Positions 5,089 through 64,000 of a stretch of 64,000 nucleotides of DNA are shown here, piece by piece. Where the stretch lies: the NCBI GenBank assembly GCA_035445085.1, contig DAOMQA010000001.1, positions 118,374 to 182,373 of the forward strand, in the 5' to 3' direction. A program made the position numbers and the translations under genes. This stretch comes from Candidatus Kapaibacterium sp. GTDB lineage: Bacteria > Bacteroidota > Ignavibacteria > Kapaibacteriales > UBA2268. A model generated the notes under the pieces. That model saw nothing but the letters and a program-made list of their open reading frames with translations, was not told the DNA's origin and did no database searches. Positions within the stretch are counted from its first letter, which is position 1. Each line of letters begins with the position of its first letter.

Positions 5089-8000
5089 TTAGTCTATTTT
5101 AATAATTTTTTTGAAATAATACGAATCATTTATCATTAAGTGAATATAATACGTTCCATTTGGCAGACATTTTATATTAATCTTTTGATTATTGCTTTGT
5201 AATACCAATTTATTATCGATATTATATATTTTGCATTCAAAATTATTGATAACTGATTTTGAATGTACGCTAATGTAATCAGAGCTTGGATTTGGACTTA
5301 TTCTTATTTGCTCGTCTTCTACTATATTATTAATTCTTAATTTATATATTTGATTATTTTTAAATCCGTTAAAGCTTTCTGCCCCAAACACCACTTCCAA
5401 ATCGACAATATCTAAATCTTTTATAAATTGCCCATTCTTGTCATATAATTTAACTATAAAATTATCACCAATATTTAAATAATTGTTATAATTTGCAACT
5501 TCATCATTAGCAAATATTGTAATTGTAGACAATCCATTTACAATTCTACCAGAACCAACTAAATTATTTTGATTACCGAACACTGCAAGCTCATAATCAT
5601 TTAGCTCTGAATTTGTTTCTATTATTAATGTTGAATTATTTAGGTTATTTATTTCAACTTTACTTAAATTTTTTGGTATATAATCATTTATATCTTCAGT
5701 TGTAGACTTGGATACAAGATTGTCTGGATATGTTAGCGTATCTAAGGTGGTCAAATACACTTGATATGCCTTACCTTGTACCATATTACCTATAGAATTA
5801 ATACCATAGGCTGGAATATATGTTTTCCCTGATGAGTTTTTAGCAATCACTAATTTACCTTTATTAACAATGCTTGATAAAGCGGTAGCAATATTCATTG
5901 ATGAATTTCTTAAATAAGCCAGATATGACCAGCCAGCTTTAACAATAATAGCCTCATTTTCTGGCTTTATGCTCTCCCCTATTATTTTTAGTATACAAGT
6001 ATTTTTTGCGTATACTTGATAGCCCTGATGCAAATTCCAATTTCCTATTGTATTAATGCCATAAGCTGGAATATATGTTTTCCCTATAGAATTTTTAACA
6101 ATTGAAATATCGTCAGATATGTCCATAAATATACTATCAAGTTTTATACTTCTTGGTAGTACATTACTTGATATTAAATTCCAGCCTGCATTTAAGTTAA
6201 TTTGCAGAGTATCATAGTAAAATGGAAATTTTGATATTATCGATTGCGAACTATCTATAAATTTTGATGGTCCTGAAGAATATTTAACATTGACGATGCT
6301 TTCTATTCCAGATGTAGCTTTCCAAGTCTTAACAACATAATTCTCGTTATCTGCCATGCCGTCTTTTACAAGTGTAGAGCTATTATCTCCCCATATAGTA
6401 ATATGTAAATCACTATTATCCCAAACTCCATATCCAGCACAATATAAATTTGAGTTCCTATAATAAAATATACCTACTGCATCTCCAATTTCGATAGCTT
6501 GCATATTTATTGTAGGGTTAATGGCTTTTGGTAAAATTATTTCCGAACTTTTACCAGTATTAGTAATTGGTTTCCATTTATTATAAATTGGTTCGATACC
6601 AAAGAAAGCAAGATAAATATTATCATTCTGATTCCACCTTTCATTGAGATTAAAACCAGCAATAGTGATATTATATTGGAAATTACCAGTTAGTACAAAA
6701 TTATTATTCTTCAAGAATAGTAAATTCATAGGTGTTGAATTGAATGAGTTATTTTCTGCATATGAATTTATTATTGCACCATTCTTATCTAAAATTGTAA
6801 TTAAAGATGAGTTATTACCATTATTTGTATAAATTTTACCGTTAATATTTATTAGATTTTTAAAAGAAGATGTTAAATAAATATTATCATTTTTGAAATT
6901 GAGGGAATAAGGTATATCCGAAGATGTACCCCCAATATTCTTCTTCCATATCCAATTACCAGAATTAGTGATTTTACCTAAGAATATATCATTATCACCA
7001 TTATGCAAGATATAATCGCCTTCAACTTCCATCAGTGCTTTAAAATTGCCTGCTACATATATATTACCATTATTATCTAATGTAAGGCAATTCGCCGATT
7101 CTACATAATTACTAGTGCCAATAGATTTAGCCCATTGCCATACGCCAGAAGAATTAATTTTTGCAATATACATATCATCTCCTCCGTTAGAAGTGAGAGA
7201 TATTTCGGCAAAATTAACTATATCTTCGTAGCTACCAGCAATATACAAATCATTATTAGTATCAGCGATTATTTTTGCAACATTATCGGTAGAATTACCA
7301 CCCGCCTTTACAACCCAATTTTTCACTAAAGATAAATTTGAAGATAATACAAAAATATCGTCATATATTCCAGCATTGAAGTTTGTACCATCAAAGTTTA
7401 TTGAGTTACTAAATGTTCCTGTAATAGCTATATTATTTGCATATATAGCAAGAGAATTGCAATTATCATCAGCAATTCCGCCATAAGTTTTTATTAAACT
7501 CATATTTCCATTACTATCAAACTTAGCCACCAATATGTCTTTCATGCCAGCACTTGGGTAATTTTGATTTAATACATTGATAGTATCAGAATAATAACCA
7601 GCCACATAATAATTATTCGATGAGTCAATCACAACGGAACGAAATTCATCGTCAGCAATGCTACCAATAGATTTAGCCCACAAAAACCCATTTTCAAGGT
7701 TATACTTAGCAATAAAAGCATCTTTCTTACCGACACTTTGCAAGGTAGTATTAGCAAAAGCAACATTGCCATAATAATAACCGCATAGAATTATATCTTT
7801 ATTCTTATCAACGTCAGACGCCAGCAATTTTATTATACCTTTAAAGCCATAGTTAATTTTATAATTTGTGATACTGCCTAATGAATCGATACTAACAGTG
7901 AAAATATCTGAATCACCCTTAGAGGCTATTGTATCGTTCTTTAAAATTATTTTCTCATTAAATGCTCCTACCAGAACTACATTGCTATCAATATTTGTAG

Positions 8001-59841: not shown

Positions 59842-61365
59842 CTACTCTAAAGAGCCAATCTCATTTTCTACAGCGTCTAATATTTTGCAAGATTTTACTA
59901 ATTCTTTCATAGTATTATGATCTTTAAATAATGGGCGGTCAATATCAAGAAATTCTATATGTTCGCGTATAATATTATGGGCTGCCGATGTTCCTTTTCC
60001 TGTAGTATAATCGCGTAAATCAAGGGCTTGGGCTGCTGCCATAAATTCAATACCAAGAATGCCGTAAGCATTGTCAATAATTTGTTGATTTTTCCATATA
60101 GTATTCATTCCCATAGATACAAAATCCTCTTGGTCTGCCGCCGCCGGAATAGATTGTACATAAGCAGGATTTGATAATAGTCTTTGTTCTACAATTAATG
60201 TATCGGCAGTATATTGGCTTAGCATCATACCAGAGAACATTCCCGCTCCTTTTGTTAAAAAGGCTGGCAAACCTTGGCTAAGAGCTGGGTTTAAGAGTCT
60301 ATTTAGTCTACGTTCCGATAGCACACATACCATAGTAAGTGAAGCACCTGCCGCATCAACGGGCAAAGATACCGGCGTTCCTTGGAAATTAGCACCTGTG
60401 AGAGTTTCATTTGTATCAGGTAAAAATATTGGATTATCAGCAACGCCATTCAATTCTATTTCGACTTGCGAACGTGCATAACTAAGCATATCGTGCGCCG
60501 CACCTATAATTTGCGGAGTGGAACGCAATGAATAGGCGTCTTGTACCTTTGTTTTTATCTTGCCACTTACCAAATCGCTACCGCTAATTATATTTTTAAT
60601 TGACTTGGCTGAACGAACAGCACCGCCAAAGCCGCGAATTTGATGAAGGCGCTCATCATAAGGCTTCATATTTGCCATCAATGCTTCGATAGACATTGCG
60701 GCGGCTATTTCAGCCATTTTCAAAATTTTATTTATATCATAAATTTGCAAGGAGGCAATAGCTGTAATGAAATTTGAACCATTTATAGAGGCTAAACCAT
60801 CGCGTGCTTGTAGTCCGGGTATATCTATACCTGCTTTTTCCATAGCAATTCTAGTAGGCATTCTTGCTCCTTGATAGAATGATTCGCCTTCGCCCATTAA
60901 AGATAAGGCTATTTGCGACATTGGCGCTAAATCACCAGAGGCACCGACTGACCCCTTTTGACATACTATTGGAGTTACACCTTTATTGAGCATTTCAACA
61001 TAAGTTTGTGTAATTTCTGGTCTGCAACCAGAATTGCCATGAGCATGTACGTTGATCCTCGAAGCCATTGCACCACGAACGAAAGGTATAGGCATAGGGT
61101 CGCCAATACCAGCAGCATGGTTATATATAAGGTATTTTTGAAATTCCTTGATTTGTTCATCATTTAAAACTATTTCTGAAAATTCACCAATACCAGTATT
61201 TACGCCATACATTATTTCTTGTTTTGCTATCTTATCTTCTAATACTTTCCTACATTTTTTAATTAAATCTAATGATTCTAAGGATAGTTCTATACTTTCA
61301 TTGTTGCGAGAAATATCAACTATTTTTTCTATTGTAAGATTATAACCATCTAATATTATTGCCAT
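59842..61365 (-). CDS. hutH: histidine ammonia-lyase
   Basis: GSVGASGDLAPMS (Ala-Ser-Gly MIO-forming triad). Confidence 0.85.
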   Translation of the reverse strand: MAIILDGYNLTIEKIVDISRNNESIELSLESLDLIKKCRKVLEDKIAKQEIMYGVNTGIGEFSEIVLNDEQIKEFQKYLIYNHAAGIGDPMPIPFVRGAMASRINVHAHGNSGCRPEITQTYVEMLNKGVTPIVCQKGSVGASGDLAPMSQIALSLMGEGESFYQGARMPTRIAMEKAGIDIPGLQARDGLASINGSNFITAIASLQIYDINKILKMAEIAAAMSIEALMANMKPYDERLHQIRGFGGAVRSAKSIKNIISGSDLVSGKIKTKVQDAYSLRSTPQIIGAAHDMLSYARSQVEIELNGVADNPIFLPDTNETLTGANFQGTPVSLPVDAAGASLTMVCVLSERRLNRLLNPALSQGLPAFLTKGAGMFSGMMLSQYTADTLIVEQRLLSNPAYVQSIPAAADQEDFVSMGMNTIWKNQQIIDNAYGILGIEFMAAAQALDLRDYTTGKGTSAAHNIIREHIEFLDIDRPLFKDHNTMKELVKSCKILDAVENEIGSLE

Positions 61366-61508
61366 TTTACCCTCTATTTTTGTATTTAAGTATTTCGCAA
61401 AAATAGCATTTTTTTTATTACTATATAAGTGAATGGTTAATTTTTAGCAATGAATTGTAAGCTATTTATGTTAAATTGCAGATTGGAAGTGAGTAATTTT
61501 TAATTTTA

Positions 61509-61593
61509 AAATCGTCTGAACTAAGATTCGCAGGATGAAAAAGATGAACACAATCGTCTAAACCAGGATTCGCAGGATGAACAAGATAAACAG
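61509..61593 (+). repeat. ~42-bp imperfect tandem direct repeat x2
   Basis: The unit aatcgtct(g/a)aac(t/c)a(a/g)gattcgcaggatgaa(a/c)aaga occurs twice in tandem, ~75 bp upstream of the GIY-YIG gene. Confidence 0.6.
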
Positions 61594-61666
61594 GATGTAA
61601 AAAAGAATACAAACAATCATGCTAATCCTAAAATCAAGTAAATCATGATTCTGACAAAAAAAATAA

Positions 61667-62182
61667 ATGAAAGGTTATATGTACATATTGGAATGTAGCA
61701 ATGGTAGTTATTATACCGGAAGTACCATTGATTTACAACGGCGTTTTGAACAACATCAAAATGGCGAAGGGGCTAATCATACCAAAAAGTATTTGCCAGT
61801 TAAATTAGTCTATTACGAAGAATTTCAACGAATAGATGAAGCATTTAATCGCGAGAAACAAGTACAAGGCTGGAGTAGAAAAAAGAAAGAAGCACTGATT
61901 AATGGAACATCGGAATTATTACCAAAATTAGCTATTGCGTATCGAGACAAAAACGGTGGTTTCGAGGACCTCAACCACCAGCGAGAACCAATGTCGCCTG
62001 AGGTTCTCGAAGGCAAGGCTATCGAAGGCAAGGCTATCGAAGGCGAAAACGGTGGTTTCGAGGACCTCAACCACCGGACAGACGAGAGCCTCAACCACCA
62101 ACACGAGCCGCCGACGCCTGAGGTTCTCGAAGGCAAGGCTATCGAAGGCGAAGTAACAACAATTAAAAAGAATACACAATGA
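61667..62182 (+). CDS. GIY-YIG nuclease family protein with repeat-derived C-terminal extension
   Basis: N-terminal ~95 aa (GYMYILECSNGSYYTGSTIDLQRRFEQH…) match the small GIY-YIG family. The last ~75 aa are encoded by GC-rich repeat units. Its TGA stop overlaps the hsdS ATG (ATGA). Confidence 0.7.
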   Translation: MKGYMYILECSNGSYYTGSTIDLQRRFEQHQNGEGANHTKKYLPVKLVYYEEFQRIDEAFNREKQVQGWSRKKKEALINGTSELLPKLAIAYRDKNGGFEDLNHQREPMSPEVLEGKAIEGKAIEGENGGFEDLNHRTDESLNHQHEPPTPEVLEGKAIEGEVTTIKKNTQ

Positions 62183-62400
62183 ACAATATACAAAAATTAC
62201 TGGGGGCTGAGGTTCTCGAAGGCAAAAACGGTGGTTTCGAGAACCTCAACCACCGGAAGCAAGACATCGACGAGGACCTCAACCACCAGCGAGAACCAAT
62301 GTCGCCTGAGGTTCTCGAAGGCGAGGTTCTCGAAGGCGAGGTTCTCGAAGGCGAGGTTCTCGAAGGCAAGGCTATCGAAGGCAAGGCTATCGAAGCCCCA
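61955..62400 (+). repeat. GC-rich in-frame repeat block (25-nt palindromic units plus 15-nt tandem units)
   Basis: GGTGGTTTCGAG(G/A)ACCTCAACCACC at 61955, 62051, 62230, with partial copies at 62086 and 62272. Tandem 15-nt units gaggttctcgaaggc/aaggctatcgaaggc at 62000-62044 and 62308-62397. About 55% GC against ~30% background. Confidence 0.85.
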
Positions 62401-63651
62401 AATAACGTGCAATGGAAAACGCTGGGGGAAGTGGTTTCAACAGTTACGGCATCAACAAAATTAAAAAAAGAAGCTTATCGGGAAAAAGGTAAAATTCCAA
62501 TTATTGACCAAGGAATTGAATTTATTGCTGGTTATACTGATGGTTTGTTAACTACAGTTCAGAAAGGAGAATATGTTATTTTTGGTGACCATTCAGAGCA
62601 TATTAAATATGTTGATTTCGAATTCATTCAGGGAGCTGATGGATTGAAAATATTAAAATCAAATTCAAATTCAAATGAAACAAAGTATATCTATTATGCA
62701 TTTCTAAATTTCTATCGAAAAGAATTAAATTATAAACGTCATTGGTCAACAGCAAAAGAAATAAAAATCCCCATCCCCCCGATCGCCGTCCAACAAGAAA
62801 TTGTACGCATATTGGATAAATTTACAGAGCTAACAGCGGAGCTAACAGCGGAGCTAACAGCGGAGCTAACAGCCAGAAAAAAACAGTATCAGTATTATCG
62901 TGAGAAATTATTGTCGCCTGAGGTTCTCGAAGGCAAAAACGGTGGTTTCGAGAGCCTCAACCACCGGAAGCAAGACGAGAACCTCAACCACCAGCACAAG
63001 ACGCCGACGCCTGAGGTTCTCGAAGGCGAGGCTCTCGAAGGCGAGGTTCTCGAAGCCCAAAATAAGGTACAATGGAAAACGCTGGGAGAGGTGGCTTTAC
63101 AAACTTCAAATATTCGTTGGCGTGATACAGAAAATTCATATAGATATATTGACCTAACTTCTGTTTGTCGAGAAACAAATACAATTATTGAGACAACCGA
63201 AATTTCTAAAGAAAATGCACCAAGTAGAGCACAAAAAATAGTACTTAAAAATGATGTAATTTTCGCAACAACAAGACCTACACAAATGAGATTATGTTTA
63301 ATCGATGATGAATATTCTGGACAAATCGCAAGTACAGGTTATTGCGTTTTGAGACCTAAAAAAGAAGAAGTTTTATCAAAATGGATATATTTTAATCTAA
63401 CCAAATCAGATTTTAGAAGCTATCTTGAAGAAAATCAAAGTGGTTCTGCGTATCCAGCTATTTCAGATTCAAAACTTAAAGAATTCAAAATCCCCATCCC
63501 TCCCCTTGCAGAGCAAGAACGCATTGTGCGGATATTGGATAAATTTGATACCTTAGTTAATTCCATCAGCGAGGGTTTGCCTAAGGAGATAGAGCTAAGG
63601 CAAAAGCAGTATGAATATTATCGGGATAAATTATTAAATTTTAATGCTTAA
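62179..63651 (+). CDS. hsdS: Type I restriction-modification specificity subunit (HsdS), two target-recognition domains
   Basis: Two halves, each with NxVQWKTLGEV…(target-recognition domain)…IPIPP(I/L)A(V/E)Q(Q/E)(E/R)IVRILDKF…KQY(Q/E)YYR(E/D)KLL. No hsdM or hsdR within the window. Confidence 0.85.
   Translation: MNNIQKLLGAEVLEGKNGGFENLNHRKQDIDEDLNHQREPMSPEVLEGEVLEGEVLEGEVLEGKAIEGKAIEAPNNVQWKTLGEVVSTVTASTKLKKEAYREKGKIPIIDQGIEFIAGYTDGLLTTVQKGEYVIFGDHSEHIKYVDFEFIQGADGLKILKSNSNSNETKYIYYAFLNFYRKELNYKRHWSTAKEIKIPIPPIAVQQEIVRILDKFTELTAELTAELTAELTARKKQYQYYREKLLSPEVLEGKNGGFESLNHRKQDENLNHQHKTPTPEVLEGEALEGEVLEAQNKVQWKTLGEVALQTSNIRWRDTENSYRYIDLTSVCRETNTIIETTEISKENAPSRAQKIVLKNDVIFATTRPTQMRLCLIDDEYSGQIASTGYCVLRPKKEEVLSKWIYFNLTKSDFRSYLEENQSGSAYPAISDSKLKEFKIPIPPLAEQERIVRILDKFDTLVNSISEGLPKEIELRQKQYEYYRDKLLNFNA
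62827..62874 (+). repeat. 12-nt tandem repeat x4 (gagctaacagcg) encoding ELTA/TAEL in the HsdS central conserved region
   Basis: Three perfect units plus one terminal variant (…cagcc). The protein reads FTELTAELTAELTAELTARKK. Confidence 0.9.
62915..63060 (+). repeat. second copy of the GC-rich repeat block, inserted between the HsdS central region and TRD2
   Basis: Palindromic unit at 62941-62965, partial at 62976-62991, and gaggttctcgaaggc-type 15-mers. Confidence 0.85.
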
Positions 63652-63681
63652 TTGTTGATGATGAGTATATTTAATAACTTT

Positions 63682-63713
63682 AACCCTGAATTATATTTTT
63701 TATAATCAGGGTT
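63682..63713. terminator. inverted repeat / possible terminator downstream of hsdS
   Basis: AACCCTGA-(16 nt AT loop)-TCAGGGTT. Confidence 0.3.
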
Positions 63714-63756
63714 GTATATAAATATTATATTATCTTGAAAACTTTATGGAGTTTTT

Positions 63757-64000
63757 CTAATTCTTAGCTATAAAATATCGTATGTATTCTTGCTTGTTGT
63801 TGCTACAATAATACTTAATACCTACTACTTTCCCATTATTTATAATTTCGTATAAATAGTTAAAATTAGCGTCTGTAAATACGTGATTAAAACTTATTTC
63901 ATTTTCACTATACTGGCTTGCTATTGTATCTGGTAATGATAGGTCAATAAAATACGAGTAAGCTGACTTAACTATTTGATTTTGTATGGTAGTATCTTGT
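63757..64000 (-). CDS. 3' end of a minus-strand gene truncated by the window edge (hypothetical)
   Basis: An open frame of ~80 codons with no in-window start and stop TAG at ~63757, found by manual translation. Absent from the ORF track because it lacks a Met. Confidence 0.3.
   Translation of the reverse strand, partial: QDTTIQNQIVKSAYSYFIDLSLPDTIASQYSENEISFNHVFTDANFNYLYEIINNGKVVGIKYYCSNNKQEYIRYFIAKN

Follow-up and report, generated by a model that had tools for sequence, protein, structure and literature searches.

In a 64,000-nucleotide stretch of the Candidatus Kapaibacterium sp. genome (contig DAOMQA010000001.1, positions 118,374 to 182,373; hereafter "the window"), a small GIY-YIG nuclease gene overlaps the start of a type IC hsdS gene, which encodes the specificity subunit of a type I restriction-modification (R-M) system. 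The nuclease gene is accompanied by an array of G+C-rich hairpins that extends into hsdS, and relatives of this nuclease-plus-hairpin arrangement are found in several phyla, often within type I operons. We consider it somewhat probable that the arrangement is a mobile, operon-compatible cassette which rides habitually in type I operons, and which came here upstream of, or together with, a canonical type IC hsdS. A further-reaching proposal is offered only tentatively: the nuclease and its hairpins may constitute an unrecognised class of bacterial mobile element, in which the nuclease mobilises its cognate repeats, integration at stop/start junctions is seamless, translational coupling keeps the insertion harmless, the hsdM/hsdS junction is preferred, and type I specificity genes are remodelled as a consequence.

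Hairpin modules at the Kapaibacterium locus

The nuclease open reading frame (ORF) spans 61667-62182 on the plus strand (171 aa), and hsdS spans 62179-63651 on the same strand (490 aa, intact frame). The catalytic domain of the nuclease is encoded by 61667-61951, and the remaining 76 codons (61952-62182) form a tail made up of two hairpin modules and an A+T-rich spacer. In all, the locus holds four direct copies of one G+C-rich composite hairpin module: M1 (about 61945-62046) and M2 (about 62036-62150) in the nuclease tail, M3 (about 62200-62398) in a first in-frame insertion of hsdS, and M4 (about 62911-63058) in a second. The modules have a GC content of 53-62% (53-59% for the first hsdS insertion), compared with 32% for the whole window. 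The 15-mer GAGGTTCTCGAAGGC occurs 12 times in the window (0.03 expected) and the 25-mer GGTGGTTTCGAGNNCCTCAACCACC, which is hairpin A, occurs four times (0 expected); every copy of both falls within 61955-63057 and none elsewhere in the 64 kb.

A module contains hairpin A, a half copy of A, hairpin B, and then 15-nt slippage repeats of the B arm, all on the plus strand. Hairpin A (GGTGGTT-TC-GAG-GAC-CTC-AACCACC) lies at 61955-61979, with copies at 62051-62075, 62230-62254 and 62941-62965, and folds into an 8-bp outer stem closed by an inner GAG/CTC stem. Its half copies (GAGNNCCTCAACCACC) are at 62084-62099, 62272-62287 and 62977-62992. In hairpin B (61993-62017, with further copies starting at 62113, 62202, 62301, 62913 and 63006), the stem TCGCC/GGCGA encloses TGAGGTTCTCGAA, and the B loop is the reverse complement of the A loop. 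As single-stranded DNA, three of the four module segments fold more stably than shuffled sequences (z = -3.6 to -5.2), with insertion 1 at z = -5.2.

The modules share long identical stretches and are mutually diverged, at 80-93% identity, with M3 and M4 93% identical over 72 nt. The first-pass annotation of this DNA had pointed to direct repeats flanking the target recognition domains (TRDs) of hsdS, and these repeats do exist: 62395-62436 matches 63055-63096 at 36 of 42 positions, and 62763-62823 matches 63486-63546 at 47 of 61. Their interpretation changes, since each member of the former pair joins the 3' edge of M3 or M4 to the opening 14 codons of a TRD, and the latter pair is formed by the normal conserved regions of the gene. 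The former pair looks like the product of one insertion having been copied to the other half of hsdS by intragenic conversion.

Association of the hairpins with the nuclease gene in other genomes

Using the nuclease protein, we retrieved its closest relatives in 80 metagenome loci (468 kb in total) and scanned these on either strand for the hairpin core pattern GAG[GC]NN[CT]TCGAA. The hairpins share a conserved 13-nt core, TGAGGNNCTCGAA, which occurs in either orientation between variable complementary stems, and 234 of the 245 cores are located within 600 bp of a GIY-YIG gene. Among 236 unique instances, 124 different stem combinations surround the constant loop, and six stem positions are Watson-Crick paired in 77% of cases, the corresponding figures being 50% for shuffled partners and 10-46% for shifted registers. 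Stem mismatches of the G.T and A.C types are about equally common (45 and 55). This symmetry carries no transcript-specific signature and lends no support to a transcript-specific RNA fold, so that a DNA-level palindrome is the simplest reading. At E values of up to 1, nothing in 61300-64000 matched an Rfam covariance model, and in a related cassette (locus L126, 5600-6900) tRNA-Asn was the only match. We also considered a single long stem in which the A loop pairs with the B loop, and rejected it because in several loci adjacent A and B hairpins show no covariation at the variable NN positions; each hairpin covaries within its own stem.

In reference genomes, the hairpin-A 25-mer is present in at least 119 loci, with carriers including Treponema, Flavobacterium, Bacteroidales, Planctomycetia, Kapaibacterium, Chitinispirillaceae and Limnohabitans. 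Individual metagenome-assembled genomes (MAGs) can hold several copies, with at least six in Treponema Tb.RUG.193 and four in one Flavobacterium MAG. Solo copies therefore exist, as 113 of 131 reference-genome hits, mostly in Treponema, have no GIY-YIG ORF within 800 nt.

The solo copies of hairpin A in Treponema (L012, L029, L031, L036, L100, L102 and others) are paired with a second hairpin, GGTCATTGAGCCTGTCGAAATGACC, and the pairs occur within small intergenic elements that have inverted repeats at their outer ends (GGGGCTGTC...GACAGCCCC). [quoted passage not shown]

Genomic contexts of the cassette

Type I R-M operons are a recurrent context of the cassette. Of the 80 metagenome relatives, 35 lie in such operons, in every case on the strand of the R-M genes; hsdS follows the nuclease in 26 of these and is the very next gene in 23. 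The gene orders are hsdM-GIY-hsdS-hsdR or hsdR-GIY-hsdS-hsdM, and at least two hsdM families are represented, including type IC with an HsdR that carries an EcoR124_C domain. Two further loci adjoin type IIG/ISP enzymes, and the same linkage to R-M genes is seen in reference-genome loci (L079, L097, L062). The order of nuclease, hairpin array and hsdS has been assembled independently more than 20 times. This recurrence speaks against the suggestion, made when the locus was first described, that the adjacency of the nuclease gene and hsdS might be coincidental.

Housekeeping and tRNA contexts also occur, and loci with and without R-M surroundings are intermingled in the nuclease tree, which, being built from 95 residues, is weak evidence. 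A cassette of about 420 bp (L151, 3626-4049), consisting of the nuclease gene with one A and one B hairpin, is located between hisD and hisC, and the stop of its ORF overlaps the hisC start (ATGTTTGA). An identical 97-aa protein is encoded in two unrelated neighbourhoods inside a 983-bp unit that is 97% identical between them (L126, 5751-6733; L127, 5752-6733); the unit comprises a tRNA-Asn(GTT) gene, a terminator, an A+B hairpin pair, the nuclease gene, another A+B pair, and some 370 bp of unassigned sequence. No transposase was found next to the cassette in the loci examined.

Insertion into R-M proteins themselves is also observed. In one operon of a Bacteroidota MAG (L121, 4291-5907 and 1072-2643), a GIY-YIG domain lies in frame within HsdR, between helicase motif I and DECH, and a GIY-YIG-HsdS fusion ORF of 523 aa is present as well; a close HsdR orthologue in L097 lacks the insert. 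The hsdR gene of L121 also has a 1-nt frameshift near 5905. A GIY-YIG domain "very recently inserted" in an HsdR, MCA0838, was noted in 2006 (Dunin-Horkawicz et al., PMC1564403). Within hsdS, a hairpin occupies the site of the window's second insertion in L159 also, and equivalent junctions carry hairpins in L146, L191 and L157. Two near-identical operons, L137 and L153, differ in their TRDs and are 89-94% identical in the nuclease gene, the hairpin array and the conserved regions.

In L181, L183, L200, L207 and L209, a remnant of a type IC hsdS N-terminus (MNKIEQFIQQFPVL) is found about 45 nt upstream of the nuclease ATG, and the remnant's stop overlaps that ATG. No R-M gene was detected in L200. 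The remnant looks like flanking host sequence that has been carried along.

Translational coupling to the downstream gene

At the Kapaibacterium locus, the nuclease stop codon (TGA, 62180-62182) and the hsdS start codon overlap in an ATGA (62179-62182, plus strand), as the first-pass annotation had reported, and its corollary of co-translation gains support from related loci. A frame that stays open across the whole hairpin array, ending between -10 and +4 nt from the ATG of the next ORF, is found in 24 of the 42 loci that have a co-directional ORF downstream. The open frame is that of the nuclease in most cases, and an array-spanning relay ORF takes its place in L158 and L172. Thirteen of the junctions are exact ATGA overlaps, the tails reach up to 229 codons, and in 11 loci an ATGA overlap also joins an upstream gene to the nuclease start.

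In relatives that have no co-directional gene downstream, the ORF ends 0-15 codons past the domain. A tail of 15 codons or fewer occurs in 24 loci, 20 of which still have hairpins downstream; most of these 24 lack a co-directional downstream ORF of at least 100 codons, and L158 and L172 use their relay ORFs. The peptide frame in which the hairpins are read differs between loci, with PEVLEG, VVSRASTT and GVRLSN frames all occurring. What is conserved appears to be the openness of the frame and not a protein motif. A functional repeat peptide (PEVLEG/NGGFExLNH) was considered for the window and ruled out, because other loci translate the same hairpins in different frames.

Translational coupling of the nuclease gene and hsdS is thus supported as real by the conserved pattern of junctions. 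The first-pass annotation had also raised the possibility of a special partnership with hsdS, and this does not follow from the coupling: the same junction is formed with hisC, which makes coupling a property of the cassette, and the sequences support no singling out of hsdS as its partner. A premature stop in the nuclease gene in three assemblies of this species, described below, also counts against such a partnership.

The GIY-YIG nuclease

The nuclease belongs to the minimal bacterial Slx1-like/UPF0213 group, with PF01541 matched over aa 2-74 (E = 7.5e-19; model positions 1-76 of 78) and Protein Data Bank (PDB) entries 1zg2 (4e-16) and 1ywl (5e-11) as structural relatives. All four motif positions (GIY, YIG, Arg and Glu) are present; in the alignment to 1zg2 they correspond to YILEC, YYTGST, RR..H and E63, the positions of the catalytic residues (Tyr, Tyr, Arg and Glu) having been read by eye. 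At E < 1e-5 there are 6492 homologues. The best of these are 75-89% identical over the domain and come from sources that include Flavobacteriales, Bacteroidales, Chitinispirillaceae and Kuenenia, and Treponema homologues are 60-70% identical. In the 80 metagenome loci the relatives show 72-84% identity, and in reference-genome loci, from several phyla, 60-80%. Homologous ORFs range from 96 to 245 aa because their tails are variable: the conserved part is the catalytic domain of about 95 aa alone, and the tails differ in sequence and frame.

Beyond the catalytic domain, no sequence-specific DNA-binding module was detected, with the NCBIfam group I intron endonuclease model scoring 18.7 bits against a cut-off of 56, and the nuclease matches no PADLOC (defence) and no PHROG (phage) family. 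The first-pass annotation's statement that small GIY-YIG genes are abundant in these genomes was not confirmed, the window containing exactly one.

The nuclease gene and its array are polymorphic within the species. Six short-read (Logan) contigs of this same species, L001-L006, cover the locus in part, and in three of these six assemblies (L002, L003 and L006) the codon of Glu63, which aligns with the catalytic Glu (window positions 61853-61855), is changed from GAG to TAG, so that the nuclease gene is a pseudogene in those three populations. The number of modules also varies between strains.

A type IC hsdS with two in-frame inserts

The window HsdS is of type IC. PF01420 matches two stretches (E = 1e-36), the PADLOC model Specificity_I matches from aa 73 (1e-88), and the closest solved structure is the EcoR124 specificity subunit (PDB 7bst, 1.3e-52), with almost identical conserved helices. 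Pfam, alignments and an AlphaFold 2 (AF2) model agree on an order of TRD1, conserved region 1 (CR1), TRD2 and CR2, in which two TRDs alternate with two conserved helical regions. By homologue alignment TRD1 spans 62398-62778, and alignment to EcoR124 places CR1, the central helix, at 62779-62913; TRD2 (63058-63501) and the C-terminal helix CR2 (63502-63648) were delimited by alignments and the AF2 model, all on the plus strand. The AF2 boundaries are aa 74-200 and 294-441 for the TRDs, and aa 202-244 and 443-486 for the helices. Sequences typical of type IC conserved regions (TAEL/RKKQYxYYR and EGLPxEIELRQKQYEYYR) align with 7bst. The two directly repeated halves that had been singled out as notable are therefore the normal type IC architecture.

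Among the 120 HsdS homologues listed are proteins of 375-410 aa from Moraxella, Proteus, Histophilus, Flavobacterium, Leptospira and Neisseria. The window protein is collinear with its homologues except for aa 10-73 and aa 246-293, segments that are found in none of 51 homologues. Insertion 1 (62206-62397, plus strand, 192 nt) contains M3, with a 15-nt repeat in 5.9 copies, and lies between the N-terminal MNNIQKLLG (family M..KLLxG) and the VxWKxLGE start of TRD1. Insertion 2 (62914-63057, plus strand, 144 nt) contains M4 and lies at the junction of CR1 and TRD2, with YYREKLL, where the central helix ends, on one side and a VxWKxLGE-type TRD2 start on the other. Since both sites precede the same TRD-start motif, they are equivalent positions in the two halves. 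We also considered whether MNNIQKLL could be the remnant of a third half-gene, and ruled this out because the alignment identifies it as a normal type IC N-terminus (M..xEKLLxG).

In the AF2 model, built from 52 sequences, the predicted local distance difference test (pLDDT) score is 93-97 in both TRDs and 77-92 in the helices, and falls to 31-41 in insertion 1 and 41-57 in insertion 2. On this prediction both inserts would be disordered linkers and the core of HsdS looks intact, and the protein may therefore still be functional if an HsdM exists elsewhere. In type IC S subunits the two halves remain functional even when made as separate polypeptides (Loenen et al., PMC3874165), which makes it plausible that a flexible linker at the helix-to-TRD junctions would be tolerated.

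The central helix contains a 12-nt repeat, GAGCTAACAGCG, in 3.9 copies with 100% matches in Tandem Repeats Finder (TRF) (62827-62873), which encodes TEL-TAEL-TAEL-TAEL-TA, or three full TAEL units. Homologues differ by exactly one 4-aa TAEL unit, and TAEL copy number is known to set spacer length in EcoR124I/II (PMC3874165). TRD1 contains a 6-nt microsatellite, AAATTC, in 3.7 copies (62655-62676), encoding SNSNSN at a position that is a short variable loop in homologues.

No hsdM or hsdR was found in the 64-kb window, either by tblastn with three HsdM/HsdR families or by Pfam on the ten largest ORFs, and the 62 kb upstream of the two genes lack both. This agrees with the first-pass annotation, in which hsdS was termed solitary, a description that holds for the window and covers the window only. 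Nothing in the window suggests that hsdM or hsdR belongs to the same transcript as hsdS. The nearest hsdS relatives belong to ordinary hsdM-hsdS-hsdR operons in which hsdM and hsdS overlap by ATGA, HsdR has an EcoR124_C domain, and a GIY-YIG gene is absent; these nuclease-free operons of the same hsdS family have diverged too far to define an empty site. The window gene should be annotated as an intact type IC specificity gene, orphan within the window, that carries two foreign inserts in frame, and not as part of a novel two-component system.

Proposed mechanism and alternative explanations

By analogy with the eukaryotic Slx1 precedent cited in PMC1564403, we infer that the nuclease may be structure-specific, and the hairpins would then be its cis-acting DNA substrate. 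Breaks at the hairpins could drive slippage, module duplication and gene conversion; M1 and M2 would arise by module duplication, and M3 and M4 would have spread in frame into two permissive junctions of hsdS, the helix-to-TRD junctions perhaps being the only sites in the gene that permit module insertion. Translating ribosomes would melt the hairpins of the tail and re-initiate at the overlapping ATG. Such re-initiation would render the insertion non-polar and allow it to be tolerated at what may have been the native ATGA junction of hsdM and hsdS.

Several observations weigh against a mobile cassette. No filled and empty versions of the same site were recovered, so that mobility and the borders of the element are inferred, and the left end is further blurred by the 983-bp unit, which begins at a tRNA-Asn gene. 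The nuclease gene and hairpin A are absent from 2.9 million viral contigs, and plasmids hold no close nuclease relative, with matches below 50% identity; carriage by phage or plasmid was thus considered and not found in either set. The Slx1-like domain of 95 aa has no obvious sequence-reading module, and it is under strong purifying selection, as would also be expected if it served the host. The strong preference for the site directly upstream of hsdS has no demonstrated cause if the element is purely selfish. Finally, all six short-read contigs of this species break inside M1, so that the join between the nuclease gene and hsdS is supplied only by the MAG assembly.

This last point bears on the possibility of an artefact or coincidence, in which the MAG was mis-joined across modules and hsdS belongs to a complete operon elsewhere, or in which the modules are low-complexity coding repeats. 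In its favour, the modules have long identical stretches in common, and the exact GIY-YIG and HsdS proteins are absent from the gene index in which neighbouring MAG genes are present. We nevertheless regard this explanation as very improbable: in strain L004 the nuclease gene is followed directly by M2-type sequence, the same gene order recurs in the independent assemblies noted above, and the modules are sufficiently diverged from one another to be resolved. Covariation of the stems, together with the unconserved peptide frame, argues against selection on a protein repeat.

A host function is the substance of another alternative, that the nuclease is a functional type I R-M accessory: a co-expressed partner of HsdS or HsdM that would act either as an additional or substitute nuclease or as a latent effector of abortive infection guarded by the R-M complex (compare PrrC and EcoprrI), with coupling fixing its stoichiometry with HsdS. 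Type I operons do embed accessory genes such as prrC (PMC3874165), and the co-directional placement of relatives in these operons with hsdS so often following, the conserved coupled junctions, the direct fusion ORF of L121 and the strong conservation of the nuclease domain would all be expected of an accessory gene. We judge it unlikely, given that the same coupled cassette lies between hisD and hisC and cassettes lie beside tRNA-Asn and unrelated genes, and that the closest hsdS relatives sit in operons without the nuclease. In this species the gene is a pseudogene in three assemblies, and the window offers no HsdM or HsdR to partner; no PADLOC model covers the nuclease, and the tail peptides vary in frame and sequence with no conserved interaction motif apparent. 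The nuclease could also serve to shuffle specificity, by cutting the hairpins that bracket TRD1, in the upstream array and at the CR1/TRD2 junction, and thereby stimulating TRD swaps or conversion, or co-conversion of TRD1 during homing into an hsdS that lacks the nuclease gene. TRD1-CR1 is indeed flanked by hairpins at each end here and in L146, L159 and L191, and a half-size hsdS in L157 has them at its end; M3 and M4 are homogenised together with 42 nt of the adjoining TRD starts (36 of 42 identical); L137 and L153 differ in TRDs within otherwise similar operons; and an hsdS N-terminal remnant travels at the left edge of the cassette even in L200. Against this stand the frequency of TRD exchange between related type I systems that have no such cassette, the finding that both TRDs differ between L137 and L153 with breakpoints that are simply the conserved regions, the restriction of hairpins to the region upstream of hsdS in most loci, and the finding of no further hsdS copy and no silent cassette at any of the loci. 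It may also be that insertions are tolerated nowhere but at the helix-to-TRD junction, and a shuffling device accordingly appears improbable to us.

Relation to known systems

The constituent parts of the locus, namely both gene families, the TAEL device and the half-gene architecture, are textbook knowledge. HsdS resembles the type IC subunits of EcoR124I/II, EcoDXXI and EcoprrI in its TRD1-CR1-TRD2-CR2 order and in the near-identical helices ILDKF..TAEL..RKKQYxYYRxxLL and ILDKFDTLxNSIxEGLPxEIELRQKQYEYYR, and has three full TAEL copies in CR1, as do EcoR124II and EcoDXXI. It differs from these in the disordered, G+C-rich insertions of 64 and 48 aa that precede its TRDs, and its locus differs in that hsdM and hsdR are not adjacent and the coupled upstream gene is the GIY-YIG gene instead of hsdM. 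The nuclease shares the minimal domain of about 95 aa with Slx1-like/UPF0213 proteins (COG2827, YhbQ, BH0048, EF2693). Bacterial members of that family were viewed in 2006 as mostly vertically inherited repair nucleases (PMC1564403), whereas the clade described here is near-identical across phyla, has its own hairpin arrays, splices into operons by stop/start overlap, and has tails of up to 229 codons.

Among mobile elements, the cassette is reminiscent of free-standing homing endonuclease genes (T4 seg/mob, I-TevI relatives), as a small GIY-YIG gene placed between or inside conserved genes whose expression is kept, with a patchy distribution and carried flanking host sequence (the hsdS N-terminal remnant). 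Unlike these, it has repeated hairpins, lacks a DNA-binding domain, intron or intein, and has no copy in the viral contigs searched and no identified cleavable empty site. With repetitive extragenic palindromes (REPs), their associated transposases (RAYTs), and MITEs, it shares short imperfect palindromes with variable stems, many solo copies alongside few gene-linked clusters, inverted A/B pairs, and dispersion in many copies per genome elsewhere, the window having hairpins at this locus only. It departs from REP/RAYT systems in having a GIY-YIG nuclease in place of a Y1 (IS200/IS605-like) transposase, a conserved loop rather than a conserved stem, and arrays that are translated. Under the tentative mobile-element proposal, the nuclease would mobilise both gene-linked arrays and solo copies, much as REP/RAYT systems do by means of another enzyme. 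Rickettsia palindromic elements are palindromes that insert in frame in coding genes, adding surface or disordered segments with the host protein kept. The in-frame palindromic inserts of hsdS are similar in this respect; they differ in their link to a nuclease gene, in a high G+C content within an A+T-rich genome, and in having no fixed reading frame.

The literature searched, from which most subscription journals were missing, contained no description of this cassette, the only precedent being the HsdR insertion of 2006. What we did not find there is the combination of a cross-phylum Slx1-like gene, a covarying hairpin array, read-through-coupled insertion into operons, a preference for the position before hsdS, and in-frame inserts in HsdS. 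If the cassette is mobile as proposed, a widespread family of small nucleases annotated only as "GIY-YIG nuclease family protein" would be the engine of a cross-phylum selfish cassette that rewrites R-M operons and inserts translated hairpins into proteins. This would explain the breaks in short-read assemblies at these loci, the erratic lengths of GIY-YIG ORFs (96-245 aa), and the odd G+C-rich inserts, or whole nuclease domains, in some HsdS and HsdR proteins. The cassette also offers a testable case of an inserted gene that preserves host-operon expression through an open frame across structured DNA, and the TGAGGNNCTCGAA core between complementary stems provides a simple marker for finding others.

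Neighbouring features of the window

Downstream of hsdS, the remaining DNA of about 350 bp had been described as non-coding, and we found there only a hairpin and one short frame. The hairpin (63681-63713) is A+T-rich and stable (RNA fold -21.6 kcal/mol, z = -3.6) and starts 30 nt past the hsdS stop; it is a possible transcript end without a T-tract, and a scan for the terminator consensus called no terminator at this position. The frame, on the minus strand, stays open for 80 codons (63757-64000) in DNA of 25% GC and is cut by the end of the window. With no homologue and no 5-residue words in common with any protein in a collection of 5.8 billion, it probably does not represent a gene.

On the other side, hutH (59842-61365) is divergent from the nuclease gene and lies upstream of it, in keeping with the first-pass annotation. 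The intergenic region between the two holds a 42-nt tandem repeat (61510-61592; TRF, 87% matches) which is unrelated to the hairpin modules. Two copies of it are present in the window and in L001, L004 and L005, and one copy is present in L002, L003 and L006.

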